DNA of 59,669 nt, taken from a virus (lineage: Duplodnaviria > Caudoviricetes). Location: IMG/VR virus record IMGVR_UViG_3300030389_003133, positions 1-59,669 of that record; one strand, written 5' to 3'. Made by a program: the position numbers and the translations under genes. Below, in pieces: positions 100 through 54,629 of this stretch. Under the pieces are notes generated by a model that was given only the letters and a program-made list of their open reading frames with translations, was not told the DNA's origin and searched no databases. Position 1 is the stretch's first letter. The number at the start of each line of letters is the position of its first letter.

Positions 100-3000
100 A
101 ATCTACGCTCATTAAAACGCAGTATACCTTCTTTCTTTTGTTGTTTTAAATCTTCTAAGATACCTTGTGCTTGTTCTAAAGACGCTTCAGGTAGGTCTAT
201 AAATTGGTCATAAGCTAATTGAAGTTGTAGTAAATTTTGCTCGAAGTAATCTATCTCTTCGTTCCTTACTACCTTTTGTGAAGCCTCAAATATTTTTTGT
301 TCATTCTTTAATAAGTAATCAGAAATCTTTCTTACCGCTTCAGCTCTTAGCTCAGGGTCTTTAATTAAAACTGCATCCAACACTTCTTTTATGTTAGCAA
401 AAGTGACCTGTGCAATACCATCGACTCCTTTTAATCTTCTCTTTTTTGACTGTAATCTAAATGAGGATTTGTCTTTTACTATTTTGTATATCTCTGCAAG
501 AGTGTCTCTTTTCATAATAGCACGTTGCTCATCTACTATCTTCATTACTTTTTCTTGAGCTGCGATATACTGCTCAGGTTTTCTTAGATTAGTTACAGAT
601 GCAATAAGTCTATTAATTTTTGCTTGACTATATTTTTTTGATGGAGGTAAACTAGCTCTAATAAAATTCTTTAACTGTATTTTTAAGTTATTAAGATTAG
701 TTGCTCCTACGTTTTGTTGTCTGAGGTTAGCTCGTATATTACTTATCTCTTGTTGAACTTCAGGATTACCTCTATATCCAAGGCTTCTGTCAAACCCTAT
801 TTGTAATTCTTGTTGTACTTGTTCATTCTGTTCTTGGAAGATAGGATTGGCTTTTAATAATTCCTGTGCCTTTTGTCTTATCTCTGAAAAGGTTTTTATT
901 CTTTTACCTGCTTTCATTGAAAAGTCTTGGAGCTTTTGATTGACTTCATTAAAAAGTTTTGCTGCCTTCAATATACCACCCTCTACACGACTAAATTCAG
1001 TCGGCATACTTGTGGTGCCATCTACGTCATAAGTCATCGCCTCGTTGATTATATCAGCACTAAACCCTCTTCCTTTTAATACTTCACGTATAGATGCGTC
1101 TGAAAATGCGTTTTCCCTACCTATACGTACTATCTCAGAAGCAGTGTCATCAGCTCTAAACATAGTCTCAGCTAAGTTCTCAGTCAATGTATTTAGTTGT
1201 TTATCGTCAATCTTCACAGGTTTACCTGAAAGAATGTCAGCAACGGCAGTTCCTAAGAACTCATCTAGTGTGAGGTCTTGTATTTCTTGTGGTGACAAGT
1301 CCTTTGATAATTTAAAGGTCTTCTTTACAAACGTCCATACAGAGTTTATCCAATTTTTTATTTTTTCTTTTAACGATTCGTTTATTACCGTCTCTCCTTT
1401 ATTACCTATTAGAGTAGCCATAGTTTCATCTACGGCTTTGGTTACATCACCATCAAACTTTTTTAAGTTTCTTTTGTAAAGAGCAGTTTGTTTTATCAAA
1501 GCTGCACCTTTATTATATATCTCTTTGCCTTGTATTTTTAAGTTTTCTATCCATACGTGTCCCATCTCGTGTATGGCAGTATTAAATAAATCACTTTTTG
1601 ATTTATGAACTTCAGGGTTGATAAATATTTTACCCTCTTTAGTCATACCATATATTACCTGTCCGTTTTTAATGTAAGGAGTTACATCAGGACTAGCTAT
1701 CATTTTATTAAATGTTTCTTGATTTACAGAAAACTGAACAAAAGGAAAACTCTTGTTGATGAATTGTAAAAATTTACCCACATCATCCATTCCAACATAC
1801 TTGTCTATCAAGTCGTTGGTGTTCATGTTGGTATCAGTATCTTTTACCTCTGTATATTCTTCTGTAGTTATTCCTTCGTTCTCGGCATCACGGTTTATTG
1901 CGAGGAGGATTTTTTCACGAAGGCTTGACCCTTCTTGTCGTTGTTGTAGGGAGCCTTGGCGACCATCTGAAAGAATCTGTTGTCGGCTCTCCTTGCCAAT
2001 ATATCTTGAGTTGATTGCTCTTTTGTCTGAGACTTCATAAGTAATGTTTTTGTCATCTAATATATCTAATAACTTTTCAAGTTTGGCATCCTTTTGGGGG
2101 TCACTAAAATCAAAAATGTCCAACAAAGTTAATGAATTATTTGTTTCGCTCAAAGTAAATTCATCAATACCTGCTTCTTGCAGGGCTTGGAAGGTGCCTT
2201 CCGTATCTGAAACCTTGATAGTAATTTCGTCACCATTATGATTTATCGCACCGTCTGTAGTATATTCAGCAGCAATGCTAGACTCTTGTACTTCAGGTGC
2301 TAATGCAGCAGCGATAGCCGCAAACTCAGAGGCTTGTTCTAGTGTAGCGTCTTTTAAATTTACAACTGTACTTATCTCTCTTATCTTTGTACCGGCATCA
2401 TTTACATAACCTCCGATAGCTTCTTCAATTTCTACTTCTAAACCTAAGTCTTTACCTAAGTCTATTAGGCTTTGCTTATACTGTTCATATTCATTTGATG
2501 TTCTTAAATTACCTGCTTCTGTTGTAGATTCAACTGAAGTGTCAAAGAACGGTGCTACATTTACTGTTGCTCCTCTTTCTTTAGTTCTAAAATCTACTTT
2601 ACCCTCTTGTATGTTTTTCTTTCTTTGGTTTAACTCTTGTATTAAAGCAGACTTAGTAGGTCTGTTTCTTTTGGATGCTCGAATCTTTTTTATTTCTGCA
2701 TCAATCTTTTTTATTTCAGCAGCAATCTTTGCTTTACTTGGTCGTCTTTTTCGTTTTACCTCTTCTTCTGTTTCTCTTACATTAGTCCCTGCTTGAGCGT
2801 TTGCAGTTTTAGGTAGGGTCTTTACCTGTATCCTTTTCTTTGTCTTTTTCTGTGTCTTTGAAGACACTCTTCTTCTTTTTGGAGGTTTGACTCCTTTTTC
2901 TTTGAGAACCTGTTCTAAGTCTTTCGTTTCTTCTGTTATTGCTTCTCGAGTATCAGTATCAACTACTTCTTTTACAGGTAATCCGGCAGCTTTACGTTGT

Positions 3001-9652: not shown

Positions 9653-10063
9653 TTATAATTTTTTTATTAGTTCAGAGTTATAAACATCACCTTTTATAAA
9701 CCCGAGTGTTTGGTATAGTTCTATCAAAGATTTACTTTTTATCAGTGCATATAAATATTTATGCCCTGTGTTCCTTGCTAATTTTTCTAAACTATCTATA
9801 AGCCATTTTAACGCATTTTGTCGATGAGGTTTTTTGCGATATGTCTTTGAAGACACAATCCAATCTACCCAAGCAACACCTGAATTGGTTGTATAAATGA
9901 AACCTGCACATATTGGTTCGTCTCCATCTAATATCATATACCCACCTGTACCGTTCTCCGGTAAAAAATCTTTTTGCGGTGGATTCCAATTCCAATCATT
10001 CCACCATCCAACGAGGATGGTATCATAATCATCGTCTTTTAATGGTCTTATATTTAATTCCAT
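9653..10063 (-). CDS. GNAT-like acetyltransferase-fold protein (136 aa)
   Basis: IRPL N-terminus, ICAGFIY strand, LYQTLGF C-terminal motif; position before internal virion genes. Confidence 0.6.
   Translation of the reverse strand: MELNIRPLKDDDYDTILVGWWNDWNWNPPQKDFLPENGTGGYMILDGDEPICAGFIYTTNSGVAWVDWIVSSKTYRKKPHRQNALKWLIDSLEKLARNTGHKYLYALIKSKSLIELYQTLGFIKGDVYNSELIKKL
9841..9856. repeat. 16-bp palindrome copy (ATGTCTTTGAAGACAC), intragenic
   Basis: Two mismatches to consensus; reads VSSKT. Confidence 0.75.
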
Positions 10064-21663: not shown

Positions 21664-21705
21664 AAAAAAAAGGAGGTGGTGTCTTTAAAGACACCACTCC
21701 TCTTT
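21664..21705 (-). terminator. Terminator after the capsid gene, built around a perfect 16-bp palindrome (21679-21694)
   Basis: AGGAG-GTGGTGTCTTT/AAAGACACCAC-TCCT inverted repeat followed by U8 on the minus strand. Confidence 0.8.
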
Positions 21706-21714
21706 TAGATAATA

Positions 21715-26858: not shown

Positions 26859-29101
26859 CTAATAATTTGACTTATATTGCCTTTATTGCTATACCTTGCA
26901 AAGTTAATCATAATTCTTGACTCTTTTCGTTCGGGTTGATAAAGGTGTTTTTGACAAGCCATTATAGCCAATCCGGAGCTAATTGATGCGTCAAACTTAG
27001 TTCTATTGCTTATATCAAACCGTGCCCAATCTTCTAAAGTTCTATTAAAATACATCTGTCCCATATCTCCTGAATCTTGCATACCAACGAAACTTTCAAT
27101 ATAAGATTCGATAGCAGCAGCGTGAGCTTGTTTTACATCTTCACTTGAGTTAGGTATACCGCCTAGTTCTTTTTCAGTTTTAGACAACTTTATAAACGTT
27201 TTATCAGGTCTATTCATGCAAAACCCTCTATATCCTCTATTTTTAAAATGATAAAGCAATCGAGGTTTGTTGTTTTCTATAAGAATCGGCATACCATAAA
27301 ACACACAAGCCATTAGTACATCTTCGAAAAAAATCTCTGCAGTTTGTGGTCTTGCTATGTATTCTAAAAAAAATTCATTTGTTGGAGCTTCTTCCATACT
27401 AAACTTGGTTAGTCCGTGTAAAGCTCCGTTAGACCCCACGCCTCCAACCGTTCCGCTTATATCATAGGAATCACAACCAAATGCTCCAATATGTTCATTA
27501 CCGGGATATAAAATGCCGTTCTTTTTTATTACATTATTTTGTATATTACGATTTGGGACCCAAGTAATGTTGAACCTTCCTCTTTTATCGGGGAAAAATT
27601 TGACCTTAGAATCTTTGATTCCATTCTCCCACGAAAATGTTCCTTGAGTTATATAATGCTCTGATAACATTGAATCGTTGTAATCAATTTGTTGATAGAG
27701 TCTAGTAAGGTTAAACAAAGACTGTTTGCTTTCATCACGAAAAGCGTGTGACTCAGTTCTTGGAAACTGTCTGTAATATTCATTCAAAGCATCGGGGTCT
27801 TTTTTTAAAGACTCTACTTCATTTTCCCAATAATCAATAGCACCCATTTGTATATCCTCATCATCTATACCTCTTACTATTGTTTTGGTTGAAAAAACCG
27901 GATTACCATATCTATCTATGAAACCCTCCATATTCCATTCCATAGGTATAAACAAACTATAAAGTCCTGTTTTTGTTTGACCATTTGCATTTCTTTGGGT
28001 TACATCTGAATCATAATAAAGTTGTTTGAAATTATTACCTCCTTTATTCAAAGCATTAGAAGTAGAGCCCATCATACATTTTCCGATTATCTTACTACCT
28101 AATCGTAAACAAGTTTTTGTTACTCTCCAATTGTTTAATATGTTATTTGGTTTTAACCATTTGCCACTTTCATCGTGAACTAACAACAAAAGTTTTTCAC
28201 CATCATAAGAGTTATCGTCAGTATTTTTCCAATCAATAGTTGTATCTAAGCCTTGTATTTCATCTTGTTCAATGTCATACATATTCTTTTTAGTAATCTT
28301 AGCTGCAGGAACTCTGTATGCTAATTCTGTTTTTGGTTTATCCATACCATCCATTATGGGTCTAAAAAAGAAAGGTAAACGACTGTTTATAGGTACCACT
28401 TTATCTGTAAACATTTTTTTTGCATCCGAACCTGTTTTAGATAATATACCTACCCTTGAATCTTTAGCTAACGTTCCTGTATGCACACATTCAGATGAAG
28501 ACATAAAAGAAAATCCTGAACGTCTAATTTTTAAATAAATCATTCCAAAACTTCTTTTATCAGCTTTACACGCTTCCCAAAAAATATATAACAATCTATT
28601 CGCTTCTCTAAAATCAGGATAGCCTACATCTATTTGAGTCCATTGTAAATACATATAGTGAGCTCCTGTAATGTATGTTGGTATGCCATTGTTTTTAAAC
28701 CAATAACCATACTCTCTATAATCAAATTCTTGTTCAATATAATCCACCCAAAGATTCTTAAATGTCTTTGGCATTTCGTTCCATTGAAAAATAGAATTAA
28801 TTCTACTTAAACTTTTTGGTAATTCTTTTCGTTCCCAATATTGTTCTTCTTTGCTTTTGTGTCTTTGAAGACACTTTTTAGGTGCAAGAGGTAAAGCAAT
28901 AGTTAGGTTGTTGATTCTGATAACATCTCCAATTAAACCTGTCTTTGATATAACTATAACATCATATTTAGAGTTATAACCATACAACCAAGACCTGTTT
29001 CTGTTCTTATTAGTAACTACATTCTTAGGAATATAATCAATAAGAACTTTGTATAAATCGCTATTTTGACCTTCTTTCAGCAAACCCTTGTTTTGTTTCA
29101 A
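26855..29101 (-). CDS. terL: Terminase large subunit (~748 aa; start uncertain, TTG)
   Basis: Walker A-like KIRRSGFS, Walker B LLVHDESGK, GST motif III, nuclease GCDSYD, IENN and FDASISSG. Confidence 0.85.
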   Translation of the reverse strand: MKQNKGLLKEGQNSDLYKVLIDYIPKNVVTNKNRNRSWLYGYNSKYDVIVISKTGLIGDVIRINNLTIALPLAPKKCLQRHKSKEEQYWERKELPKSLSRINSIFQWNEMPKTFKNLWVDYIEQEFDYREYGYWFKNNGIPTYITGAHYMYLQWTQIDVGYPDFREANRLLYIFWEACKADKRSFGMIYLKIRRSGFSFMSSSECVHTGTLAKDSRVGILSKTGSDAKKMFTDKVVPINSRLPFFFRPIMDGMDKPKTELAYRVPAAKITKKNMYDIEQDEIQGLDTTIDWKNTDDNSYDGEKLLLLVHDESGKWLKPNNILNNWRVTKTCLRLGSKIIGKCMMGSTSNALNKGGNNFKQLYYDSDVTQRNANGQTKTGLYSLFIPMEWNMEGFIDRYGNPVFSTKTIVRGIDDEDIQMGAIDYWENEVESLKKDPDALNEYYRQFPRTESHAFRDESKQSLFNLTRLYQQIDYNDSMLSEHYITQGTFSWENGIKDSKVKFFPDKRGRFNITWVPNRNIQNNVIKKNGILYPGNEHIGAFGCDSYDISGTVGGVGSNGALHGLTKFSMEEAPTNEFFLEYIARPQTAEIFFEDVLMACVFYGMPILIENNKPRLLYHFKNRGYRGFCMNRPDKTFIKLSKTEKELGGIPNSSEDVKQAHAAAIESYIESFVGMQDSGDMGQMYFNRTLEDWARFDISNRTKFDASISSGLAIMACQKHLYQPERKESRIMINFARYSNKGNISQIIR
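28859..28874. repeat. 16-bp palindrome copy (GTGTCTTTGAAGACAC), intragenic
   Basis: Reads CLQRH in TerL. Confidence 0.9.
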
Positions 29102-39038: not shown

Positions 39039-40648
39039 TATGCTGAGGTTTCATAACTACGTGCCATAGTAACTATAGCATTAGTTGATAAAATAGTAAC
39101 GGCTACCGATACTGCATTTTGTAAAGCCTGTCTTGTAACTTTTACAGGGTCTATTACTCCAAGAGTCATTAGATAACCATACTTTTCTTTTTTTACATCA
39201 TAACCATAATTAGCACCTTTGCTATTTTTATAAATCTCTTTTAGTTCTAATCCTGCGTTTACTAATATCTGATTCATTGGTGCTGACAATGATTCAGCTA
39301 AAATTGCATAAGCAATTTTTTTTGAAAAATTTTCTTCACTGTTTTCCTGAACCGCACAAGACTTGGCATGATTATATAACGCTAGTCCTCCGCCCGGTAG
39401 TATGCCTTCTTCAAGAGCACTACGTACGGCACACACCGCATCGTCTACTCTATCAAACAATTCTTTTTGTTCTAAGTCTGTATTACCACCAACATATACA
39501 ACACCTATACCTCCGGTTAGCGAAGCTATCCTTTGGTTTATAAAATCTTTATCTTGTTTCTTTGTGGCTTCTTCATACGCCTCATGTAGTTGTGCAACTC
39601 TTTCTTCAACTTCTTCATTGGATGAATCTTCATCTTTCACGATGACTGTTGAGTCACGGCTAACTATCACCTTAGCACAATGACCCAAATCGTTGAAACT
39701 AATCAAACTCAAATCATCGCCTGTCTTTTCGCTAAAGTAAGTTGCACCTATGCTTATTGCAATATCCTGCATTAACTCGTGTTGTCTGTATCCAAAGTCC
39801 GGCGGGACTATGTTACATATCTTTAAACCATTCTTTATTACATTAGCTGCTAAAGTATTTATAACGTTTGTAGAGCACGGAGCTATAATCAAAAGTTTCT
39901 TGCCTTCTGATATTATTGGTTTTAATATATTTTCTATTTGGAGTATGTTGCTTATCTCTCCATCACAAACTAATACGTATGTGTCTTCAAAGACACACTC
40001 ATCTCTCTTTTGGTCATTGATAAATAAGCCTGAAGAATATCCTCTTTTAATTTTTATTCCTTTAGTAGTTTCATAATATGTAGATGAGGTTTTACTTTTT
40101 TCTACTGTGACTACTCCATCCTTACCTACGCTTTCGTAAACGTCCGCAATAATTCCACCAACTTTTTTATCGTTGTTGGCTGATATAATGGCAACGTCCC
40201 GTAATCTTTTTTCGTCTAGCTTCTTGCCTTTTACTTTGAGAGACTTTGAAATTAATTTCGTAATCTCTACCAAATGTCGCAAGACCTCCGTTCGATTTAC
40301 TTTCGAATCTATTAATTTTGTACCTGCATCTACTAATGCTTCTGCTAATACAATAGCAGTTGTCGTTCCATCACCTGCTGAGGTAGCAGTTCTATCTGCA
40401 GCTTCTTTCATCATTCTAACCGCAAGGTTTTCAACCGGGTCTAATAATGAAATTGACTTTGCTACAGTAACACCATCTTTAGTTACTGTTATACCATGTA
40501 AGTGTTCAGGGGATTCTATTAACACAGTGTTTCCTCGAGGACCGAGGGTCGACTTCACTGCGTTAGCGATTTGCTTAATTCCTTTGATTAGTTTTTCTCT
40601 GCCTTCATTATTGAAATGAAGTTCTTTAGGATTGAAACCTTTCTGCAT
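39038..40648 (-). CDS. groEL: Phage chaperonin GroEL (536 aa)
   Basis: TLGPRG, TKDGVTVAK, AGDGTTTA, GILPGGG and GVIDPVKV motifs; lacks the GGM tail. Confidence 0.95.
   Translation of the reverse strand: MQKGFNPKELHFNNEGREKLIKGIKQIANAVKSTLGPRGNTVLIESPEHLHGITVTKDGVTVAKSISLLDPVENLAVRMMKEAADRTATSAGDGTTTAIVLAEALVDAGTKLIDSKVNRTEVLRHLVEITKLISKSLKVKGKKLDEKRLRDVAIISANNDKKVGGIIADVYESVGKDGVVTVEKSKTSSTYYETTKGIKIKRGYSSGLFINDQKRDECVFEDTYVLVCDGEISNILQIENILKPIISEGKKLLIIAPCSTNVINTLAANVIKNGLKICNIVPPDFGYRQHELMQDIAISIGATYFSEKTGDDLSLISFNDLGHCAKVIVSRDSTVIVKDEDSSNEEVEERVAQLHEAYEEATKKQDKDFINQRIASLTGGIGVVYVGGNTDLEQKELFDRVDDAVCAVRSALEEGILPGGGLALYNHAKSCAVQENSEENFSKKIAYAILAESLSAPMNQILVNAGLELKEIYKNSKGANYGYDVKKEKYGYLMTLGVIDPVKVTRQALQNAVSVAVTILSTNAIVTMARSYETSA
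39981..39996. repeat. 16-bp palindrome copy (GTGTCTTCAAAGACAC), intragenic
   Basis: Reads VFEDT in GroEL. Confidence 0.9.
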
Positions 40649-41228: not shown

Positions 41229-41445
41229 GGTCCCCCCACCCCACCGGCACCGCACCCTGCTGCGGAAGTCCGTTTTTTTTCTTGGGGGGGGTCGTCGTTT
41301 TTGTGCTGCGGTTCTGATTTTTTTGGCTTTTTCTGTGGTCCCTTTGTCCCTGTGACCTGTAACCTGTTGACGTTCCCCCGTTCCCCCGTTCCTTTGCCCC
41401 CGTTTGGACCGTTAACGTTCCCCCGTTAACGTTCTCCGCCCTCTG
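41229..41445. other. GC-rich, A-poor non-coding segment with C/G runs and CGTTCCCC repeats; candidate genome end/packaging region
   Basis: Composition unlike the rest of the genome; sits at the late/early divergence point. Confidence 0.45.
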
Positions 41446-41467: not shown

Positions 41468-41483
41468 GTGTCTTTAAAGACAC
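41468..41483. repeat. Perfect 16-bp palindrome, intergenic
   Basis: GTGTCTTTAAAGACAC upstream of the early promoter. Confidence 0.95.
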
Positions 41484-41617: not shown

Positions 41618-41648
41618 TTTGGTAGTTTACAGAAAAGAACTATATTTG
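41618..41648 (+). promoter_or_regulatory. Early promoter, Bacteroidota primary-sigma consensus
   Basis: TTTG (41618)-19 nt-TATATTTG (41641); followed by hairpin GATGAACG/CGTTCATC (41653-41673). Confidence 0.8.
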
Positions 41649-41692
41649 AACAGATGAACGACGAACGTTCATCGTAATTTAAACTTAAATAA

Positions 41693-42325
41693 TTGAAAAT
41701 GAATAATTTAATGCAAATCGAGGCAGATTTTTTAGCCTCACAAAGTGAAGTAAATTTCAGAACTGTTTGGAATTTACAGAATCAAGTAAGCGATGCTAAG
41801 AAATCGAAATTTGATAAGTCGCTAAAGTTAGCGAAGTTAGTGAGCCAATCTTTAGAGTGGTTCAAAAAGCCTGAGACGAAAGGCGAATTACTTGAAGCAG
41901 GTATCGAATGGACCAATGCTGAAGTATTTTTTAACAGAGTGTACGGGTGGCAAAAGTCGTTCGGTCACAAAATGGTTAAAGCAGGTAATCTTGAAACGTC
42001 TTTAGTAACTAAATTCAAGAGAAAATGTACTCAATTAGAGAACAACGGCGAGGATGCAACAAGAAGCATCGAAGCACTTTTGAAATTTGCGAAAGCAGAG
42101 CAAAACGGCGACGAAGCCGAAGTACCAACAAGAGTAAAAACTTTATTCAATTTATCGTTTGCGAAAGACGGTATCAACGGAGAAAGGGGCTATACTTTGA
42201 GAGTAACGGAAACGGGCGAAATCATCGACAACGGCGACGTTGAAAATGATTTAATTGCTAACTACGTTGCGAAACTAGCATCAAGAGTATCAATCGAAAT
42301 TCAAAACTTAAATAATAATCAATAA
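41693..42325 (+). CDS. First early gene, hypothetical (~210 aa; ATG at 41699 is an alternative start)
   Basis: ORF track; directly after the promoter. Confidence 0.75.
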   Translation: MKMNNLMQIEADFLASQSEVNFRTVWNLQNQVSDAKKSKFDKSLKLAKLVSQSLEWFKKPETKGELLEAGIEWTNAEVFFNRVYGWQKSFGHKMVKAGNLETSLVTKFKRKCTQLENNGEDATRSIEALLKFAKAEQNGDEAEVPTRVKTLFNLSFAKDGINGERGYTLRVTETGEIIDNGDVENDLIANYVAKLASRVSIEIQNLNNNQ

Positions 42326-42329: not shown

Positions 42330-42345
42330 GTGTCTTTAAAGACAC
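42330..42345. repeat. Perfect 16-bp palindrome, intergenic
   Basis: Between the 42325 stop and the 42362 start. Confidence 0.95.
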
Positions 42346-43406: not shown

Positions 43407-43433
43407 GGACCTTAGCACGTCCCTAAACTGCTA
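43407..43433 (+). ncRNA. H-type pseudoknot candidate upstream of hammerhead 1
   Basis: Stem 1 GGAC(43407-10)/GUCC(43419-22); stem 2 UAGCA(43413-17)/UGCUA(43429-33). Confidence 0.6.
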
Positions 43434-43484
43434 CCGTCGGCGGATGTGTATTCGCCCTGATGAGTTCGAAAGAACGAAACGGTA
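43432..43484 (+). ncRNA. Type III hammerhead ribozyme 1 (cleavage after GUC, C43438)
   Basis: Stem III UACCGU/ACGGUA; stem I GGCGGA/UUCGCC with loop UGUGUA; core CUGAUGA; stem II GUUC-GAAA-GAAC; core GAAA. Confidence 0.93.
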
Positions 43485-43507
43485 ATTTTAATTTAATACT
43501 TATAAAA

Positions 43508-43729: not shown

Positions 43730-43746
43730 GCAGAGTCTAAGGGGTT

Positions 43747-43762
43747 GTGTCTTTAAAGACAC
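43747..43762. repeat. Perfect 16-bp palindrome in an extended hairpin, directly 5' of hammerhead 2
   Basis: GGGGTT-GTGTCTTTAAAGACAC-CGCCCC. Confidence 0.95.
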
Positions 43763-43768
43763 CGCCCC

Positions 43769-43817
43769 CCGTAACGGGATGAGTGTCCCGTCTGATGATT
43801 CCAAAAGGATGAAACGG
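43769..43817 (+). ncRNA. Type III hammerhead ribozyme 2 (cleavage after GUA, A43773)
   Basis: Stem III CCGU/ACGG; stem I ACGGGA/UCCCGU with loop UGAGUG; CUGAUGA; stem II U-UCC-AAAA-GGA-U; GAAA. Confidence 0.87.
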
Positions 43818-43836
43818 TAACTTAAAATTTAATAAA

Positions 43837-44162: not shown

Positions 44163-44336
44163 ATGGAAGCACTAAAGTCTTATACAATTTACTACAAAGG
44201 AAAGCCCGTCTCACGAGAGGCGGGTTATACCAAGTACCACGCCCTAGACAAGGCGTATACAAATTTGTCTCAAAAATACAAAGGTATCGAGAGAAAAAAC
44301 CTAGACACCAAAAAAAATAAATTTGGTTATGTCTAA
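44163..44336 (+). CDS. Small hypothetical protein (57 aa)
   Basis: Hand translation MEALKSYTIYYKGK...KFGYV. Confidence 0.6.
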   Translation: MEALKSYTIYYKGKPVSREAGYTKYHALDKAYTNLSQKYKGIERKNLDTKKNKFGYV

Positions 44337-44353
44337 ATTTTGTCGTATCTTTG
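44322..44353 (+). promoter_or_regulatory. Second early promoter, Bacteroidota consensus
   Basis: TTTG (44322)-20 nt-TATCTTTG (44346). Confidence 0.75.
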
Positions 44354-44373
44354 TTTAATATTAATCGAGTTCT

Positions 44374-44389
44374 GTGTCTTTTTAGGCAC
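44374..44389. repeat. Degenerate palindrome copy GTGTCTTTTTAGGCAC in a 5' leader
   Basis: Three mismatches; still pairs as GUGUCU/AGGCAC with a G-U wobble. Confidence 0.6.
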
Positions 44390-44408
44390 CGCTCACAAAT
44401 TTAATTTT

Positions 44409-45497: not shown

Positions 45498-45510
45498 CCT
45501 AAGTAAGCTC

Positions 45511-45526
45511 GTGTCTTCAAAGACAC
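45511..45526. repeat. 16-bp palindrome copy in an extended hairpin, directly 5' of hammerhead 3
   Basis: AGCTC-GTGTCTTCAAAGACAC-GGGCT. Confidence 0.92.
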
Positions 45527-45530
45527 GGGC

Positions 45531-45583
45531 TACTGTTCAGGAATGTGTGTTCCTGCTGATGAAGTCAAAAGACAGAAACAGTA
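45531..45583 (+). ncRNA. Type III hammerhead ribozyme 3 (cleavage after GUU, U45537)
   Basis: Stem III UACUGU/ACAGUA; stem I CAGGAA/UUCCUG with loop UGUGUG; CUGAUGA; stem II A-GUC-AAAA-GAC-A; GAAA. Confidence 0.87.
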
Positions 45584-45600
45584 ACTTTAAATTTAATAAA

Positions 45601-47005: not shown

Positions 47006-47365
47006 ATGAAAGCAATATATTTAAAAGAAGCATCGGCAGAAAAGATGCGACCAAACCCACACAAGGGATACATACAAAGACTACAAGTAATGGCAGACAA
47101 AGACAAGCCGTTAACGTTTAGTGTCTTTAAAGACACGGGAACTATTTATCATAGAAAAGATTACGAGAAAGATAATGGTAACTTTTGCGGTCATCAATTA
47201 TTAGACGACACTGAAACTGTTATTGTTTACATTGGTTGCACGATAATAGAATGCAACAAAGACAATGAGTGGTCAGTGCAGATTGGTCAAGACGTTCACA
47301 AAAGTAAAGACGTGGAGGAAGTAGAGAAAAAGTTATATGAATTTTATTTATCAGAAATACAATAA
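47006..47365 (+). CDS. Hypothetical protein (119 aa)
   Basis: ORF track. Confidence 0.65.
   Translation: MKAIYLKEASAEKMRPNPHKGYIQRLQVMADKDKPLTFSVFKDTGTIYHRKDYEKDNGNFCGHQLLDDTETVIVYIGCTIIECNKDNEWSVQIGQDVHKSKDVEEVEKKLYEFYLSEIQ
47121..47136. repeat. Perfect 16-bp palindrome, intragenic
   Basis: Reads VFKDT. Confidence 0.95.
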
Positions 47366-48242: not shown

Positions 48243-48672
48243 CTATTCGCCCCAAGATATAATGCAACAAGCAATAGAAGATAACTATGCAGTCGACGTA
48301 AGCGGAGACGGATACATTGGTAAAATTTTATACGGTTGTAAAATATCTATGGACAATGAAAGCAAGGAGGTTGTTATACAATCGACAACAATGGGTGGAG
48401 AATATTACAAAGAAGTCCCGTCAGATATACACGAAATTTTTTTAAAAAAAGGTTGGAGAATTGGTGTCTATGAATTATCTTTGTCTAACTATCGTACAAA
48501 ACTCGATAGGATTGGTCAGAGTATAAAGGCAGAAGTTAACGGTAGAAAAAACCCGAAACAAATTCAGTCACTCAAAGCATCAAGAGAAAGTATCTTAAAG
48601 AGATACAGTAAAATTAAAAGTAAATTAAATCAAATATCAAATGAAACTCAAGACAGTAAACATCAAAGGTAA
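48208..48672 (+). CDS. Hypothetical protein (up to 154 aa; start uncertain)
   Basis: ORF track. Confidence 0.6.
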   Translation: MIMNSPLINLPNYSPQDIMQQAIEDNYAVDVSGDGYIGKILYGCKISMDNESKEVVIQSTTMGGEYYKEVPSDIHEIFLKKGWRIGVYELSLSNYRTKLDRIGQSIKAEVNGRKNPKQIQSLKASRESILKRYSKIKSKLNQISNETQDSKHQR

Positions 48673-49168
48673 AGAGTATGTTGAGGTAAATGAAAGACTT
48701 ATTTATTTCAGAAAACACTTTCCAAAGCACTCACTAATTACAGAAGTCATAGAGAAAACAGAAAACTCTATTTTAATTATGGCTTATGTTATAGACGAGA
48801 ATGACAACACCATCGCTACGGGGTTGGCAGAAGAAATCAAAGGCAGCACCTTTATTAATAAGACATCATACGTGGAGAACTGCGAAACCTCAGCGTGGGG
48901 TAGAGCGTTAGCAAACTTTGGAATTGGATTAGACACATCAGTCGCATCAGCAGACGAGGTATCTAATGCTATTGCTAATTCAGAAGTGTCTTCAAAGACA
49001 CCAAAGAAACCATTACTTAAATTGGGAACTGCTAATTGGGTCAAGGCACAGAAGTGGATTGATGCTAATAAAAGCAAAGGCATGGATAGTTTGGTCAACA
49101 CATTAGAGACCAAGTATTCTTTGTCAGCAAATGCTAAATCAGAAATCAAAAAAATTCTAGCACAATGA
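48641..49168 (+). CDS. Single-strand annealing protein, Rad52/Sak-like (175 aa)
   Basis: IKGKEYVEVNERL...ATGLAEE...ENCETSAWGRALANFGIG; next to exonuclease and SSB-like genes. Confidence 0.6.
   Translation: MKLKTVNIKGKEYVEVNERLIYFRKHFPKHSLITEVIEKTENSILIMAYVIDENDNTIATGLAEEIKGSTFINKTSYVENCETSAWGRALANFGIGLDTSVASADEVSNAIANSEVSSKTPKKPLLKLGTANWVKAQKWIDANKSKGMDSLVNTLETKYSLSANAKSEIKKILAQ
48986..49001. repeat. 16-bp palindrome copy (GTGTCTTCAAAGACAC), intragenic
   Basis: Reads VSSKT. Confidence 0.9.
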
Positions 49169-49917: not shown

Positions 49918-50068
49918 ACTATGGCTTGTGTCTTTAAAGACACGGCTATTTAAAAAGAAACGTGTCCATATAGTCGAAGTTCCAATGACTTGTGAGACTC
50001 GTGCCGAGAAAAGAAAAATTATCTCCGCAACTAGAAAACTTTTGGAACAGAACATAATAATTATATAA
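49904..50068 (+). CDS. Small hypothetical protein (54 aa)
   Basis: Internal ATG of the track ORF; fills the gap. Confidence 0.5.
   Translation: MKKFKLWLVSLKTRLFKKKRVHIVEVPMTCETRAEKRKIISATRKLLEQNIIII
49928..49943. repeat. Perfect 16-bp palindrome
   Basis: Reads VSLKT; also 10 nt after the exonuclease stop. Confidence 0.95.
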
Positions 50069-50557: not shown

Positions 50558-52972
50558 ATGACATCAGACATCACTATATTCAGAAACATTAAATCAACAG
50601 ACACACCATTTTATAGAAAAGTAGAGCATATATTAGACCGCATCAAAGACGGAGCGTCTAAGGAACTTGTAAAGCGTATCAGGCTAGAGCAACGCAAAGC
50701 AGAACGCAATGAACTAAAAAAGAATTTACCCGCTATTTGTTTTTCAGGAAAGTTTATAAAAAGAAACGACAACTCCATCCAAGAACATTCAGGACTTATC
50801 TGTTTAGACTTTGACGGTTACGAGAAAAGCAAAGAATTATTACAAGACAAAGAAAACATAACCAAGTCTCCCTATACTTTTTCAGTTTTTATTTCTCCAA
50901 GCGGTAAGGGATTGAAAGTATTAGTGAAGATACCACAAGACATAGACAATCACGTAAATTATTTTAATTCTTTAAATAAACATTTTAATAATGATAAGTT
51001 TGATGTCACGTGTAAAAACTTATCAAGAGTATGTTATGAAAGTTATGACCCACTAATCTATCACAACCCTAACTCATCTGTATGGGACAAGATAGAAGAG
51101 AAAGAATACCAAGAGAAGCACCAATACAGAGATGCTCCTACCATTCCTATAACAGACGAAAACAAAATCGTTGAAATACTTCTACATTGGTGGAACAAAA
51201 AATATCCAATGGTTGAAGGACAAAGAAATCATAACTGTTATGTACTAGCCTCAGCTTTTAATGACTTTGGAATAAACAAATCGTTAGCAGGATATATTTT
51301 ATCCAACTATCAAACTTCAGATTTTAACGAGACTGAAATAAATAGAACTATTGACAGTGCGTATGCTAACACTCAAAACTTTGGAAGCAAATACTATGAA
51401 GACGAAGACCGAGTTAACAATTTAAAAATAAAACTCAAAAGAGGCACGTCAAAAAAAGAGATTCGCTCCCAACTAGAGGACAGTCAATTGGAGAGCGAGG
51501 TAATAGATGCCGTCCTCACACGTATAGACGAAGAAGCACAAGAGACACAGTTTTGGACCAAGAACGATAAAGGAACTATAAAGATTGTTCACGTTTTATT
51601 TAAACAGTTTTTAGAAGACAACGGCTTTTACAAATACTGCCCCGAGGGAGGAAAGAATTATGTGTTTGTTAAAGTGACTAACAACTTGATAGACCACACT
51701 GACGAAAAAAGTATCAAAGATTTTATTCTAAACTACCTCCTTGATATTGATGACCTAAGTATATACAACTACTTTGCAGACCAAACAAGATTCTTTAGAG
51801 AAGAGTTTTTGACATTGCTTTCTACAATAGATATTTATTTTATTGCTGACAACAAGGATACTTCTTATTTGTATTTCAGAAATTGTGCAGTTAAAGTTAC
51901 ACCCAAAGAAAAAACCATCATTGATTACATAGACTTAGGTGGATACGTTTGGAAAGACCACGTAATAAATAGAAACTTCACTTCTTGTGAAGACAACACA
52001 GACTACAAGACCTTTATTAAAAACATCTGTAAAGGAGAAGAAGACAGAGTAAAGTCAATGGAGAGTACAATAGGTTTTATGATGCATGGACACAAAAACC
52101 TATCTTATTGTCCTGCAGTAATATTAAATGATGAGGTAATATCAGACAATCCTGAAGGCGGCACGGGTAAAGGAATATTTATGAACGCACTAAGCCAAAT
52201 GAAAAAGGTTGTAACCATAGACGGAAAAGCATTTGCATTTGAAAGGTCCTTTGCTTATCAGCTTGTATCAGCAGACACACAGATACTTGTCTTTGATGAT
52301 GTGAAAAAGCATTTTGACTTTGAAAGATTATTTTCTGTTGTCACTGAAGGTTTGACATTAGAAAAGAAAAACAAGGACGCAATTAAAATACCTTTCAGCA
52401 AGTCTCCCAAGATAGCGATTACAACTAACTACGCAATCAAAGGCAGTGGTAATTCTTTTGCGAGACGTAAATGGGAACTAGAACTCCATCAACATTATAA
52501 TAAAAACCATACACCTTTGGACGAGTTTAAAAAACTTCTGTTTGGCGATTGGAACGATGACGAATGGTGTGCGTTTGACAACTATATGATTAACTGTTTA
52601 CAGGGATACCTCAACACAGGATTGGTCCAAAGCAAATTTGTAAACCTTAAAAAGAGACAACTATCTGCAGAAACTTGTCACGACTTTATTGAATGGTGTG
52701 GACTTATAAACGGTAGTGAGCCAAGTGATATGCTTCGAACAGACGTAAGAATTAGTTTGCAAAACGCATACATAGACTTTATCGAACACTATCCTGACTA
52801 TGGACCTAAAGCCAAATTAACCATAAGTAGGATTAGATTCAATAAATGGATGGTTGCCTATGCCGTTTTTAAAACGGGAGCTTCACCCGAGGAAGGTAGA
52901 GACCACTCAGGTAAATGGATGAGATTAAAAAGAGCCGATGAAATTAACCCACAATCAAGATTAAATGTGTGA
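50558..52972 (+). CDS. Primase-helicase (VirE-N/BT4734-like N-terminus, PriCT, P-loop helicase; 804 aa)
   Basis: KKNLPAICFSG, SGLICLDFD, FISPSGKGLKV, SRVCYESYDP; GQRNH; GGTGKG Walker A, VFDD, ITTN. Confidence 0.82.
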   Translation: MTSDITIFRNIKSTDTPFYRKVEHILDRIKDGASKELVKRIRLEQRKAERNELKKNLPAICFSGKFIKRNDNSIQEHSGLICLDFDGYEKSKELLQDKENITKSPYTFSVFISPSGKGLKVLVKIPQDIDNHVNYFNSLNKHFNNDKFDVTCKNLSRVCYESYDPLIYHNPNSSVWDKIEEKEYQEKHQYRDAPTIPITDENKIVEILLHWWNKKYPMVEGQRNHNCYVLASAFNDFGINKSLAGYILSNYQTSDFNETEINRTIDSAYANTQNFGSKYYEDEDRVNNLKIKLKRGTSKKEIRSQLEDSQLESEVIDAVLTRIDEEAQETQFWTKNDKGTIKIVHVLFKQFLEDNGFYKYCPEGGKNYVFVKVTNNLIDHTDEKSIKDFILNYLLDIDDLSIYNYFADQTRFFREEFLTLLSTIDIYFIADNKDTSYLYFRNCAVKVTPKEKTIIDYIDLGGYVWKDHVINRNFTSCEDNTDYKTFIKNICKGEEDRVKSMESTIGFMMHGHKNLSYCPAVILNDEVISDNPEGGTGKGIFMNALSQMKKVVTIDGKAFAFERSFAYQLVSADTQILVFDDVKKHFDFERLFSVVTEGLTLEKKNKDAIKIPFSKSPKIAITTNYAIKGSGNSFARRKWELELHQHYNKNHTPLDEFKKLLFGDWNDDEWCAFDNYMINCLQGYLNTGLVQSKFVNLKKRQLSAETCHDFIEWCGLINGSEPSDMLRTDVRISLQNAYIDFIEHYPDYGPKAKLTISRIRFNKWMVAYAVFKTGASPEEGRDHSGKWMRLKRADEINPQSRLNV

Positions 52973-53210
52973 TATAAACCAAGCAATGATAAATAGTTTG
53001 AATGTATTAAATGGTGATGTCACCATAGAAGAACTAATTATGCAAGGCGAGGGATGGTTTGTTTTTAATCCGGAGAAGACTGTGTCTTTAAAGACACTTG
53101 AACAGATGCTTCAATATTTTACAGACGTAGAAGATTATGAAAGATGTAGACAAGTATATAATTTAATTAACGATGGCAAAACTATTGGGAAGGACTTCAG
53201 GTTGGAGTGA
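52965..53210 (+). CDS. Hypothetical protein (81 aa)
   Basis: ORF track; EDYERC motif. Confidence 0.65.
   Translation: MCDINQAMINSLNVLNGDVTIEELIMQGEGWFVFNPEKTVSLKTLEQMLQYFTDVEDYERCRQVYNLINDGKTIGKDFRLE
53082..53097. repeat. Perfect 16-bp palindrome, intragenic
   Basis: Reads VSLKT. Confidence 0.95.
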
Positions 53211-53418
53211 CTGCGAACAACTAAAGCAAATGGAAATATTGTTCAGGGTTATGAACAAAACAAAAACAGTGAAGATAGGCAGAGGAAAGAAAGCCTACAC
53301 CAAGGAAGAGTTTGTTTATCAGTCAGAATCAGACGATGAGGTAAGAGACAATATTAATTTTTCAATTGAACATTATAAAAAACTATGTTTAAATTCAGAG
53401 AATACCAATCAACAATAA
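53173..53418 (+). CDS. Hypothetical protein (81 aa)
   Basis: ORF track. Confidence 0.6.
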   Translation: MAKLLGRTSGWSDCEQLKQMEILFRVMNKTKTVKIGRGKKAYTKEEFVYQSESDDEVRDNINFSIEHYKKLCLNSENTNQQ

Positions 53419-54629
53419 TAGAAAAGGGTGCTGAGATATGTGCGAAATATAAATTCGTATACTTATCTATGGAGGTCAGAACGGGAAAAACACTCACAAG
53501 CATGGGCATAGCCACAAGACTTCAGTGTAATAATGTTTTGTTTGTTACAAAAAAGAAAGCCATCAGTTCGATTGAAAACGATTATAAACTTCTCAACCCC
53601 GACTTTGAGATAACTGTTATCAACTATGAGTCACTACACAAAGTAAAGAGCAGAGCAAGTAATAGGTTTGATTTTATTGTAGTAGACGAGGCACACTCAT
53701 TAGGTGCATTCCCAAAGCCAAGTAAAAGAGCAAAGGATATAAAAAATTTAATTAATAAAAACAGAAGCCCCTATGTTTGTTTGATGTCGGGAACACCAAC
53801 ACCTGAAAGCTACAGTCAGATGTATCATCAGGTGTTTGGTATCCCAACAAACCCGTTTAAAAAATACGTGAGCTTTTACAAGTTCGCTAAGGATTATGTT
53901 AAGGTTACTCAGAAAATTATTAACTCTGTTTACATAAACGATTACTCAAAAGGAACCTTAAATATTTTGTATGAAATGAAACCATACACTATAAGTTTTA
54001 CACAACAAGAGGCGGGGTTTACCAATACAATAGATGAAGAGGTGCTGAGTGTAAAGATGAAACCTATAACGTATGAACTAACAAAACAGTTAACAAAAGA
54101 TAAAGTAATAAACGGCGTAGGAGATACTATACTTGCAGACACACCTGCTAAAATGATGCAGAAGTTACATCAACTGTATTCCGGAACTATTATATGCGAG
54201 AGCGGTAACGGAATTATTCTCGACGATTCAAAAGCATTATTCATCAAAGAGCATTTTAAAAATAAAAAAATTGCAATCTTTTATAAGTTTAGACAAGAAT
54301 ACAAAGCATTGAAGAGTGTCTTTGAAGACACGCTTTGTAACACTGTTGAAGAGTTTTGTAACACTGATAAATGTATAGCATTGCAAATAGTAAGCGGTAG
54401 AGAAGGCATTAGTTTGAAAGAAGCTGAGGCTATTATTTATTACAACATAGACTTTAGTGCTACAAGTTATTGGCAGAGCAGAGACAGAATGACAACTAAA
54501 GATAGACGACACAGTAAAATTTATTGGGTCTTTTCTGAAAAGGGAATTGAGAAAGATATTTACAAGACAGTGATAAAGAAGAAAGATTACACGGTACAAC
54601 ATTTTAAAAGAGATTTATTAACTTTGTAA
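53385..54629 (+). CDS. SF2 (SNF2-like) helicase (414 aa)
   Basis: FREYQ, RTGKT, VVDEAH, SGTP, EGISL and QSRDR motifs. Confidence 0.85.
   Translation: MFKFREYQSTIIEKGAEICAKYKFVYLSMEVRTGKTLTSMGIATRLQCNNVLFVTKKKAISSIENDYKLLNPDFEITVINYESLHKVKSRASNRFDFIVVDEAHSLGAFPKPSKRAKDIKNLINKNRSPYVCLMSGTPTPESYSQMYHQVFGIPTNPFKKYVSFYKFAKDYVKVTQKIINSVYINDYSKGTLNILYEMKPYTISFTQQEAGFTNTIDEEVLSVKMKPITYELTKQLTKDKVINGVGDTILADTPAKMMQKLHQLYSGTIICESGNGIILDDSKALFIKEHFKNKKIAIFYKFRQEYKALKSVFEDTLCNTVEEFCNTDKCIALQIVSGREGISLKEAEAIIYYNIDFSATSYWQSRDRMTTKDRRHSKIYWVFSEKGIEKDIYKTVIKKKDYTVQHFKRDLLTL
54316..54331. repeat. 16-bp palindrome copy (GTGTCTTTGAAGACAC), intragenic
   Basis: Reads VFEDT. Confidence 0.9.

Follow-up and report, generated by a model that had tools for sequence, protein, structure and literature searches.

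A genome-specific palindrome dispersed through genes and RNA hairpins of a phage genome as the candidate operator of an early dimeric protein

The window, that is the whole 59.7-kb stretch of DNA that was analysed, is a complete marine phage genome that closes circularly, a giant open reading frame (ORF) continuing in frame across the contig ends, and part of it is present in 20 DNA runs from 10 studies. Seven exact copies of a 16-nt palindrome, GTGTCTTTAAAGACAC, stand in this genome. A scan allowing up to 3 mismatches returned 15 sites in all, the seven included, against a mean of 0.58 and a maximum of 2 in shuffled controls, and the exact 16-mer was absent from every one of these controls (0/100). 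Six further copies carry a single change, one carries two and one three; the central forms TTTGAA and TTCAAA are the identical change seen from opposite strands. The coordinates and sequences of all copies in the original prediction were correct, as was its division into ten copies in the early arm (41.4-54.4 kb, + strand) and five in the late arm (- strand). According to the ORF map, eight copies lie inside genes and seven between them. The half-site GTGTCTT is not enriched away from the 15 sites (5 observed, 8.35 expected). The copies and the elements around them are given below; the -33/-7 consensus used for the promoter-like sites P1 and P2 is what we take to be that of Bacteroidota.

2852..2867: copy in the giant virion-type ORF (- strand), changed once at the centre
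9841..9856: copy with two changes, inside ORF 9653-10063 (- strand, phrog_17252)
21666..21708, - strand: terminator that follows the major capsid gene, a longer hairpin with the exact palindrome at its apex (21679-21694)
28859..28874: copy with one change in the large terminase gene (TerL; 26855-29101, - strand), conserved in position in G002 and G003
39981..39996: copy with one change in the phage GroEL gene (39038-40648, - strand), kept in G003
41468..41483: exact copy in the divergent intergenic region, with the E1 start codon 216 nt downstream of it
41618..41648, + strand: promoter-like site P1 of host type (Bacteroidota -33/-7), pattern TTTG-N17-22-TAnnTTTG
41653-41673, + strand: non-standard 5'UTR hairpin downstream of P1, fold -10.3 kcal/mol
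41699..42325, + strand: E1, first early gene, 208 aa, candidate palindrome reader with a predicted helix-turn-helix at residues 74-96
42330..42345: exact copy beginning 5 nt past the E1 stop and ending 16 nt ahead of the next ATG (42362)
43431..43485, + strand: type III hammerhead with canonical core and no adjoining palindrome (Rfam RF00008, 46.7 bits, E 4e-7)
43739..43820, + strand: whole element, in which an extended hairpin (-17.8 kcal/mol) contains the exact palindrome 43747-43762
43766-43820, + strand: type III-like hammerhead element, 4 nt after that palindrome hairpin (29.3 bits, E 0.035)
44322..44399, + strand: promoter-like site P2 (44322-44353), then a 5'UTR hairpin capped by the degenerate copy 44374-44389 (three changes); ATG at 44409
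45504..45586, + strand: whole element with the copy 45511-45526 (one change) in an extended hairpin, -17.6 kcal/mol
about 45533-45586: hammerhead-like element directly 3' of the 45511 copy, with an A.A pair next to the core, recognised by eye and in alignment A4; no Rfam match at E up to 10
47121..47136: exact copy in ORF 47006-47365, with homologous copies in L006 (6616) and L005 (5531)
48986..49001: copy with one central change in ORF 48641-49168
49928..49943: exact copy 11 nt past the exonuclease stop, the flanks lengthening its stem, -12.9 kcal/mol
53082..53097: exact copy in ORF 52965-53210, with homologous copies in L005 and L006
54316..54331: copy with one change in the helicase gene (53385-54629), where two alternative positions are conserved and this copy occupies one

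Dozens of contigs, each assembled independently, have the same dyad or a compensated form of it at homologous positions, so the copies are not the adapter or assembly artefact for which the original prediction had allowed. The shuffled controls, none of which reached the observed count, and the in-frame closure of the giant ORF over the contig ends likewise speak against an artefact or a chance pattern; nothing was found in favour of either, and we give this explanation virtually no weight.

The repeated unit is the dyad GTGTC-N6-GACAC, with arms that are constant within the genome, a fixed spacing and a free centre. It occurs 216 times in the loci, with 38 different central hexamers, which fits the earlier remark that the copies vary almost solely at the centre; no other spacing was seen more than twice, N4 excepted, whose 12 cases are all one conserved coding site in the primase gene. 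Uncultured relatives carry 6-19 copies of their own version of the dyad, with the arms GTGTC (6-19 copies in G001-G005), GTGTCG (14 copies in MW202828), GTCCG (12-15 in G006-G008), GTCTG (16 in G009), GTGTAC (7-8 in G018 and G038) or GTCTC, and between related genomes the arm differences affect both half-sites. At the homologous site in the helicase gene, the peptide reads SVFEDT, GLFQQT or SPFERT, in each case matching the genome's own dyad, and EEFNST in the absence of a dyad; in the window the frame was checked and gives KSVFEDT, in line with the earlier reading. Since the helicase peptide varies with the genome's own dyad, selection acts on the nucleic acid and not on the peptide, as had been proposed. 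The positions of the in-gene sites in TerL and GroEL are also conserved among the relatives named above. The centre is asymmetric: in both arms TCAA favours the sense strand (102 vs 44), and this preference flips with the direction of transcription, which hints at a strand-specific constraint, only partly explained by the stop codons in TTTGAA and TTTAAA.

The intergenic copies cap stem-loops, namely the capsid-gene terminator, a 5'UTR hairpin that follows a host-type promoter-like site, a hairpin just 5' of type III hammerheads, or stem III of type I hammerheads. Their flanks lengthen the stem with copy-specific complementary bases, and the in-gene copies have no extended stem (about -6 to -7 kcal/mol). 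Dyad-less relatives retain these stem-loops with other sequences in place, and dyad-poor relatives have different stems and loop lengths at the homologous 5'UTR site. The 5'UTR helix covaries, with 91% of the cells paired against 73% in shuffles and compensatory change in 10 of 11 pairs; its sense strand holds 12 G.U cells and 3 A.C cells. The capsid-gene hairpin (MFE -23.6 kcal/mol) is G+C-rich, stands at a gene end and is followed by the U-run UUUUUU on the - strand, features that predict an intrinsic terminator, and the homologous terminator carries each genome's own dyad in six other records (G002, G003, G006-G009).

Hammerhead-core candidates number 57 in the 27 dyad-bearing sources; the dyad immediately precedes 29 of them (type III) and lies in stem III of 10 (type I). 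In both designs the predicted cut lies a few nt beyond the hairpin on its 3' side, and the upstream RNA would end in the hairpin, as it would at the terminators. In an alignment of 28 type III elements (A4) the stems covary, with 94.7% of the cells paired against 71.6% when shuffled and 31-46% when slid, and compensatory change is seen in 6/6 pairs of stem I and 3/3 of stem II; a core CUGAUGA ... GAAA ... UH with three covarying stems identifies these elements as probable hammerheads. The best scores were 46.7 (gathering score 48.5), 40.5, 29.3, 28.8 (RF00163) and 31.6 (RF03152); no match in six loci reached the Rfam gathering score, and the 10.1-11.1 pair beside the core is G-C in 11/27 elements and mispaired in 16/27 of type III. 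In a distant clade, an intercistronic hairpin with a GAAA tetraloop is repeated at the same kind of place.

These data feed the main rival explanation, namely that the unit acts as an RNA stem-loop whose reader is a phage-specific factor, E1 or another protein, that binds or cuts RNA, or else as a standard 3'-terminal hairpin of processed early mRNAs. In the latter version, a hammerhead, a terminator or a protein nuclease would generate the RNA end just 3' of the hairpin, and the hairpin would shield or label the cistron upstream of it. The contexts of the intergenic copies, all RNA-structural, argue for it, as do the dyads beside or in hammerhead-core candidates, the covarying hammerhead stems, the covarying 5'UTR hairpin with its G.U excess, the terminators bearing each genome's own dyad, the hairpins of the distant clade and the sense-strand preference of TCAA. 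However, the stem is conserved and the loop free, the reverse of the pattern in most known hairpin-protein recognition, and the in-gene copies, besides lacking extended stems, would sit under translating ribosomes. Genome-wide, the sense strand shows neither a G.U bias (14 G.U vs 12 A.C) nor a folding advantage (0.51 kcal/mol vs 0.44 for random neighbouring segments). Moreover, no hammerhead core was found in MW202828 or L032 despite their many dyad copies, and the subthreshold scores and mispaired cores tell against this explanation as well, leaving us to regard it as somewhat unlikely.

A further explanation dispenses with a specific reader: duplication or recombination of intercistronic cassettes (stop codon, hairpin, leader) would keep the copies alike, and the hairpin would have generic roles only. 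A like origin has been proposed for the promoter-stem-loop cassettes of T4-type phages. Entire modules, flanks included, do recur, among them aatcagaggtca-dyad-tcctcacaaa in L006 and taaaccag-GGGAGCGGAAACGCTCCC-cacaat in L068, L073 and L060; turnover is rapid among the small early genes that separate copies, many of them being present in at most 5 of the 27 dyad-bearing loci; the phage encodes a RecE-like exonuclease; and in MW202828 a stop codon, always 3 nt upstream, belongs to the unit. Left unexplained are the bare in-gene copies that carry the genome's own arms at conserved positions in the helicase, TerL and GroEL genes, the strictly fixed spacing around a drifting centre, the standard apex found in ribozyme stem III, terminator and 5'UTR hairpins with unlike flanks, and the link to E1. 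Cassette duplication on its own is thus, in our estimate, quite improbable.

E1 was found in 25 of 36 records, and 22 of these 25 have at least three copies of one dyad; the other three (G017, G019 and G020) have 0-2. Among the 11 records in which E1 was not found, ten have neither GTGTC nor any other recurrent dyad in their loci, and G012, with 13 dyad copies, begins 294 nt before the first of them. In 80 further loci, picked via the neighbouring GATase gene, at least three copies were present in 77 and E1 in 69. A search of 50,697 phage records recovered E1 from MW202828 only, and the cultured relative elemo gave no E1 match and, for any arms at spacings of 2-10, at most two copies, none recurrent. 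A dyad copy begins no more than 40 nt past the E1 stop in 48 of 67 loci and lies no more than 400 nt upstream of E1 in 56 of 67 (median 216 nt). Because E1 and most dyad copies share the same mosaic early block, their co-occurrence partly reflects linkage and shared ancestry.

Residue 91 of E1 lies in the predicted helix 86-96 of the helix-turn-helix. A comparison of 83 distinct E1 sequences gave K in 71/71 sequences of GTGTC genomes, R in GTGTA genomes (2 sequences), R (2) or K (2) in GTCTC genomes, two lineages of which keep K, D in GTCCG and ATCCG genomes (2), E in the GTCTG genome (1) and L in the GTACG genome (1). A switch from Lys to Asp or Glu together with C:G to G:C at arm position 5 fits the usual major-groove contacts, and an acidic residue (Asp or Glu) at the centre of a helix that reads nucleic acid is better suited to reading DNA bases than to RNA binding, a further point against the RNA stem-loop explanation. 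On the E1 tree the arms changed five times and residue 91 three times; only three independent pairs lie on supported branches (five on all), and the sign test is not significant. E1 had no Pfam match, no PDB sequence match and no Foldseek PDB match. Compared with VIA-align, the E1 model gave, over its helical domain alone, Z 4.9 (rmsd 3.3, 82 aligned) with KorB 8qa8_A, Z 4.4 with KorB 1r71_A and Z 3.9 with SopB 3mky_P; these KorB and SopB domains rank highest among its DNA-binding matches, but all are weak matches below the Z of 5 under which the tool itself calls matches common; the modelled likeness to ParB/KorB DNA-binding domains is a weak structural lead.

Might the reader instead be a host protein (a transcription factor, or part of a restriction or uptake system), or might the dyad serve as a parS-like partition site of a plasmid-like prophage? 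A 5+6+5 palindrome is the usual site shape for dimeric bacterial regulators, and the arms differ between phages with possibly different hosts, both of which would suit a host reader. The exact 16-mer occurs in 72 stretches in ~596 billion bases of representative genomes, over many phyla and nearly always as a single copy. One of these matches, L176, is the contig of a relative that was placed in the bin of a Flavobacteriaceae genome. These mostly single occurrences tell against a host reader. The original prediction had called for a check of Bacteroidota chromosomes, and each Bacteroidota record with the motif has one copy, so that it is not a repeat in representative chromosomes. The partition role put forward in the original prediction found no footing either, as no ParA/ParB, integrase or plasmid genes were among the 53 ORFs scanned. 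With the arms tracking a phage gene, E1, we consider a host-read or partition site very improbable. A REP-like host repeat or CRISPR-repeat mimic was rejected on the finding of no arrays in Bacteroidota representatives, an indirect argument.

Taken together, these data lead us to favour, with a probability of about one half on sequence evidence, the reading that the dyad copies are operator sites, lodged in RNA hairpins that existed before them, for a DNA-binding protein that is dimeric and made early; E1 is the most likely candidate for the reader. An E1 dimer would bind the dyad on double-stranded DNA. We propose that the palindromic sites settled in hairpin-coding DNA because it was already dyad-symmetric, with an apex free to change, and that a few more settled in tolerant codons. 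Bound E1 would then be a global regulator of long host-polymerase transcripts, autoregulating through the sites around its own gene and acting as a roadblock or silencer between early genes, in a way that would resemble KorB on RK2 or the Cluster A stoperators. Several observations sit less well with an operator: the intergenic contexts are all RNA-structural, with stem-extending flanks that a pure DNA site does not need; the TCAA bias hints at a strand-specific constraint; the 5'UTR site has its G.U excess on the sense strand; a strong roadblock would make the late-arm copies in TerL, GroEL and the giant gene awkward; the independent switches of arms and residue 91 are few (3-5); and G017, G019 and G020 have E1 with hardly any copies.

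The RNA hairpins may have kept a second role. The original prediction had proposed a site for a dimeric protein and/or an RNA hairpin signal, and each part has evidence: for the first, a candidate reader in the early protein E1, whose predicted helix-turn-helix varies with the arms and which is found together with the dyad; for the second, intergenic copies in covarying stem-loops, in or by hammerheads and in a terminator. That the 16-nt element is truly dual, an operator of E1 as DNA and, as RNA, the apex of the mRNA 3'-end hairpins left by hammerheads and terminators, strikes us as distinctly unlikely. If it were, and if E1 or a partner bound RNA too, one protein-site pair would couple transcription control to ribozyme-driven mRNA processing and stability, and ribozyme stem III would have been recruited as a protein-binding platform, making a natural protein-responsive hammerhead.

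Among known systems, the PeSL (promoter-early stem-loop) cassettes of T4-type phages are near-identical intergenic stem-loop modules between fast-turning early genes; to our knowledge each includes a promoter and none has been reported within a gene, whereas here the constant part is the dyad alone, present in coding sequence too. The conserved inverted repeats (CIRs) of the Streptomyces phage phiC31 serve a temperate repressor, and Neisseria DNA uptake sequences form inverted pairs preferentially in terminator hairpins, also in genes; both resemble the present dyad in being DNA-read motifs with many conserved intergenic copies. The uptake sequences, however, are read singly by a host receptor, and half-sites are not enriched here.

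Like the hammerhead arrays of phages and prophages, as far as published excerpts describe them, the genome has several predicted hammerheads between early genes, and Perreault et al. 2011 propose that phage hammerheads cut long transcripts into gene-length mRNAs (PMC3088659). A genome-specific palindrome in or beside a hammerhead is not described in the excerpted parts of that paper (PMC3088659), and a literature search found no such link.

The available sections on Cluster A stoperators (L5 gp71-type) describe up to ~30 repressor sites over both arms, in short intergenic gaps and in genes; the motif changes from phage to phage along with the repressor, and a site next to the repressor gene serves autoregulation (PMC6550527, PMC9283540). 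Stoperators are 13-bp asymmetric, monomer-read sites with one orientation to transcription in temperate phages. The present element is a perfect dyad with an orientation bias in its centre only, and we do not assign it to the stoperators; its candidate reader is the first early gene, unlike the immunity gene that encodes the stoperator reader, and neither an integrase nor an immunity-type gene was found among the 53 ORFs scanned.

RK2 carries 12 OB sites. As with KorB and OB on that plasmid, one palindrome is dispersed over a mobile genome, KorB being a dimeric helix-turn-helix silencer. According to the sections available, the OB site is palindromic and distal OB sites exert long-range repression (PMC11790492). 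Unlike KorB, E1 shows no ParB N-terminal CTP-binding domain and no Pfam match, with fold matches of Z 3.9-4.9; the genome is that of a virulent-looking phage in which no ParA or KorA partner was found, rather than a plasmid, and its sites, unlike KorB OB, are embedded in RNA hairpins and ribozymes. The candidate for a cognate protein is E1, which co-occurs with the dyad and whose residue 91 changes with the arms, only 3-5 of the comparisons being independent (sign test not significant), and the sites themselves are many, fixed in half-site spacing and far above chance, like a KorB/OB operator set.

The window spans an entire phage genome, and its record is rated 100% complete. Relatives of its capsid protein are found in the uncultured phage MW202828 (64%), Maribacter phage Panino, Flavobacterium 'elemo' phages and Cellulophaga phages.

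Genes and gene blocks of the window
1-6770 plus 57095-59669, minus strand: giant ORF of 3114 aa, free of stop codons, running from 6770 through base 1 and on in frame from 59669 to 57095; weak match to phrog_22978 only
11867-18934, minus strand: second giant ORF, 2355 aa, matching a virion structural family
21715-23208, minus strand: capsid gene, in the late arm
From ~41.2 kb downwards, minus strand: late and structural genes, including capsid, portal, TerL, GroEL/GroES and the two giant ORFs
41.7 to 57.1 kb, plus strand: early and replication genes
42362-43393, early block: amidoligase-like protein (Atlas neighbours; PF12224 in 12% of one cluster)
44409-45497, early block: class II glutamine amidotransferase fused with gamma-glutamyl cyclotransferase (N-terminal MC...), hereafter the GATase gene

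The divergent intergenic region contains, at 41364-41436 and directly upstream of the first palindrome, four iteron-like direct repeats, GTT(G/A)ACGTTCCCCCGTT, plus C-rich tracts; comparable C-rich repeats occur in relatives (positions 90-135 of locus L006). These repeats could mark an origin or form an array bound by some other protein.

The exact 16-mer, of the form GTGTC-N6-GACAC, occurs seven times in the window and in none of the shuffled sequences. When up to three mismatches were allowed, 15 sites were found, against 0.58 on average and never more than 2 in shuffles, and the coordinates given by the original prediction, made by a model from the sequence alone, all proved correct. The 'one-change' forms TTTGAA and TTCAAA are a single change viewed from opposite strands. 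According to the ORF map, eight copies lie in genes and seven are intergenic. The original prediction had also asked whether related phages keep this palindrome or another, and we found that relatives carry their own versions of the arms. In MW202828, GTGTCGTTAACGACAC is present 14 times without variation, both half-sites being altered together, and many of the 80 loci retrieved with the primase gene, from at least 214 relatives, each contain 5-16 copies of a version of their own. Whole records contain 12, 14, 17, 19 and 6 GTGTC dyads (G001-G005), 13, 15 and 12 GTCCG dyads, 16 GTCTG dyads (one record) or 7-8 GTGTAC dyads each. GTGTC-N6-GACAC was counted 216 times over all loci and any other spacing at most twice, barring N4, whose 12 cases all represent one site conserved in the coding sequence of the primase. 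The central hexamer takes 38 forms, and half-sites alone are not enriched. This combination of a fixed N6, a drifting centre and unenriched half-sites indicates that something reads both arms and disregards the centre; that the copies are kept alike by homogenisation of a cassette that nothing reads appears quite improbable.

The exact 16-mer was found in 72 stretches of representative prokaryote genomes, spread over many phyla and nearly all as single copies. Bacteroidota chromosomes, which the original prediction had proposed to check, carry no repeats of the 16-mer among these representative genomes. A 32-kb contig (L176) from a Flavobacteriaceae metagenome-assembled genome bin is collinear with the early arm of the window and has 6 dyads in 8 kb, which points weakly to the host group unless the contig was misbinned; the host is probably a marine member of the Flavobacteriaceae. 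The 16-mer, extended to about GGTG-16mer-CACC and followed by a T-run, is also present as terminator-like hairpins in Patescibacteria (L137, L177, L196, L202 and L203 in one genome, L198 and L207 in another), recurring at least six times in an unrelated genome of this candidate phylum. The sequencing runs containing the stretch are 20 DNA runs from 10 marine studies, with no RNA run listed.

The copies located inside genes have no extended stems. The helicase gene carries its copy at either of two alternative positions ~45 nt apart, and the peptide at this site, SVFEDT, GLFQQT or SPFERT, tracks the arms of the genome, with EEFNST in dyad-free genomes. This change of peptide with the genome's own arms bears out the earlier proposal that selection on the in-gene copies acts on the nucleic acid. 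The copies that the window has in TerL and GroEL recur at the same positions in the related records G002 and G003.

Judged from their sequence, the intergenic copies are the predicted tips of RNA stem-loops. Upstream of the GATase-GGACT gene, a promoter-like site of host type, TTTG-N20-TAtcTTTG (44322-44353), is followed by a hairpin and then by an A/C-rich leader. Over 25 aligned loci, the helix of this 5'UTR is 91% paired, versus 73% in shuffles and 30-56% when slid, with compensatory change in 10 of 11 pairs; on the sense strand, G.U cells outnumber A.C cells by 12 to 3. Dyad-poor relatives keep the hairpin, but with different stems and loop lengths. At the 3' side of the capsid gene, the copy at 21679 caps a hairpin of -23.6 kcal/mol that is followed by a U-run, a predicted terminator. 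The same terminator contains the genome's own dyad in six whole related records (G002, G003, G006-G009) and no dyad in MW202828. Directly after P1, the promoter-like site at 41618-41648, lies a perfect, dyad-free 8-bp hairpin, GAUGAACG-ACGAA-CGUUCAUC (41653-41673), which would start the first early transcript and constitute a second 5'UTR hairpin. In a distant clade of the family (L068 at 901, 1189 and 1818, L073, L060), another intercistronic hairpin with a GAAA tetraloop, GGGAGCG-GAAA-CGCUCCC, is repeated in the same stop-hairpin-CACAA-ATG layout.

Hammerhead or hammerhead-like elements are also located between the early genes of the window.

Hammerhead and hammerhead-like elements of the window
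43431-43485: type III, Rfam 46.7 bits, E 4e-7, below the gathering score
43766-43820: type III or type III-like, Rfam 29.3 bits, below the gathering score
About 45533-45586: type III-like, recognized by eye, with no Rfam report

Rfam gave no hammerhead at the gathering score in six relatives, with sub-threshold matches of 40.5, 31.6 and 28.8 bits. When 28 type III elements were aligned, 94.7% of the cells were paired, versus 71.6% in shuffles, with compensatory change in 6/6 pairs of stem I and 3/3 pairs of stem II. The pair adjoining the core (10.1-11.1) is G-C in just 11 of 27 aligned elements and A.A or U.U in the other 16, which makes hammerhead activity uncertain. Among 57 core candidates from 27 dyad-bearing sources, some of them false, 29 have a dyad hairpin immediately upstream, 10 use the dyad as the outer portion of stem III in a type I design, 13 are type III without a dyad hairpin and 5 are unclear. 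In both designs, the predicted cleavage position falls a few bases 3' of the dyad hairpin. Type I forms are visible in relatives (L038 2100-2200 and L026 1160-1240, for example), and a core-motif scan detected a hammerhead-like core, CTGACGAG...CGAAA, at ~16.1 kb on the early-gene strand of the cultured elemo phage (L308/L309). Hammerhead arrays in phages are already known, as described in PMC3088659. We found no published account of a protein-type dyad, specific to each genome, that is built into terminators, 5'UTR hairpins and stem III of hammerheads and also has in-gene copies evolving along with it; the supplementary figures of PMC3088659 may show phage hammerheads with a long stem III.

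Because all intergenic contexts are RNA structures whose stems are lengthened by the flanks, the element could be read at the RNA level. In both arms the centre shows a sense-strand preference for TCAA (102 versus 44), which stop codons in TTTGAA/TTTAAA explain only in part. With composition taken into account, G.U tests over the whole genome show no effect: all copies together gave 14 G.U versus 12 A.C on the sense strand, and their sense-strand folding advantage is 0.51 kcal/mol, compared with 0.44 for random neighbouring segments. We consider an RNA-level reader less likely than a DNA operator.

On comparative sequence grounds, the candidate reader of such an operator is E1, the product of the first early gene (41699-42325, plus strand, 208 aa), which follows the arms. 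E1 was found in 25 of 36 records, with three or more copies of one dyad in 22 and 0-2 in three. Ten of the 11 records without E1 are dyad-free, the exception (G012, 13 copies) being cut 294 nt ahead of its first copy. Of 80 further loci taken through the GATase gene from at least 262 relatives, 77 have at least three dyad copies and 69 have E1. Among 50,697 phage records, MW202828 is the sole E1 carrier; no dyad recurs in the cultured elemo phage, and a locus search with a single E1 sequence returned just four close relatives. A dyad copy begins at most 40 nt downstream of the E1 stop in 48/67 loci, and one lies within 400 nt upstream of E1 in 56/67 (median 216 nt). The AlphaFold model of E1 (pLDDT 77) displays two helices, 74-82 and 86-96, separated by a turn of three residues, a predicted helix-turn-helix. 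At residue 91, compared over 83 distinct E1 sequences, GTGTC genomes have K (71/71 sequences) and GTGTA genomes R (two); two GTCTC genomes have R and two others keep K, while D is found in GTCCG and ATCCG genomes (two), E in the GTCTG genome (one) and L in the GTACG genome (one). Placed on the tree, these data amount to just 3-5 independent comparisons, none in the wrong direction and too few for a significant sign test. Foldseek against the PDB gave no match for E1 at E up to 0.001, its profile matched neither PDB sequences nor Pfam, and BFVD returned unnamed homologues only. The predicted complex of two E1 copies scored 0.40 against a mark of 0.42, which speaks neither for nor against binding.

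Unlike E1, two small core proteins with a DnaA C-terminal helix-turn-helix (PF08299; 47955-48242 and 55355-55879; 39.2 bits, and 27 bits, under the cut-off) occur in dyad-bearing and dyad-free genomes, with helices that ignore the arms, and were rejected as the specific reader. The same applies to the winged-helix-like gene at 38031-38465, core with or without the dyad, whose helix does not follow the arms. This gene, the sole plus-strand gene within the late arm, has a TTG start and is kept in 24/25 near-complete relatives; its MW202828 homologue is annotated 'repressor protein'. The amidoligase-like and GATase-GGACT genes co-occur with the dyad and E1, but are read as linked passengers of the early block. 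The idea of an N4-like or crAss-like virion RNA polymerase that uses hairpin promoters was discarded, with no DFDxD in either giant ORF and no family match; the crAss polymerase preprint, in its available part, reports no early motif. A T-loop or tRNA-like reading was likewise dropped, the centre being too variable and a tRNA search of the genome having found none.

Taken together, conserved arms around a free centre whose length is fixed, the perfect symmetry of the half-sites, in-gene copies that are bare, a helix-turn-helix candidate and the change of K to D/E alongside C:G to G:C in the arm argue for a DNA operator of the candidate reader E1, a reading to which we give a probability of about 0.5. 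The hairpins would be older than the standard apex and would function as RNA; the standard apex would be a protein site that settled within these pre-existing hairpins, since DNA that encodes a hairpin has dyad symmetry from the outset and its tip is free.

To our knowledge, almost none of the early genes of this podophage family has a known function. For these uncultured podophages of Bacteroidota type, a large marine family, E1 and GTGTC-N6-GACAC offer a concrete candidate regulator-site pair. The two would illustrate how a compact genome houses a palindromic protein site, within existing RNA hairpins, including the free stem of hammerheads, with a few further copies written into genes, the peptide paying the cost. 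The natural arm variants and the matching changes at one helix residue constitute a potential specificity code. In practice, the dyad is a sharp marker of this phage group, and the hairpin-plus-hammerhead junctions may serve as natural insulators between cistrons.

As for known systems, PMC11790492 describes dispersed palindromic OB sites for KorB, and PMC6550527 describes stoperator motifs of Cluster A mycobacteriophages that vary with the repressor. The likeness of E1 to the ParB family is weak by the tool's own standard, its model's top DNA-binding matches being KorB (Z 4.9 and 4.4) and SopB (Z 3.9), and the definition of a stoperator, asymmetric and temperate, does not cover the palindrome of this phage. 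By analogy, these two, KorB with its OB sites and the Cluster A stoperators, would be the closest systems in the way they work.
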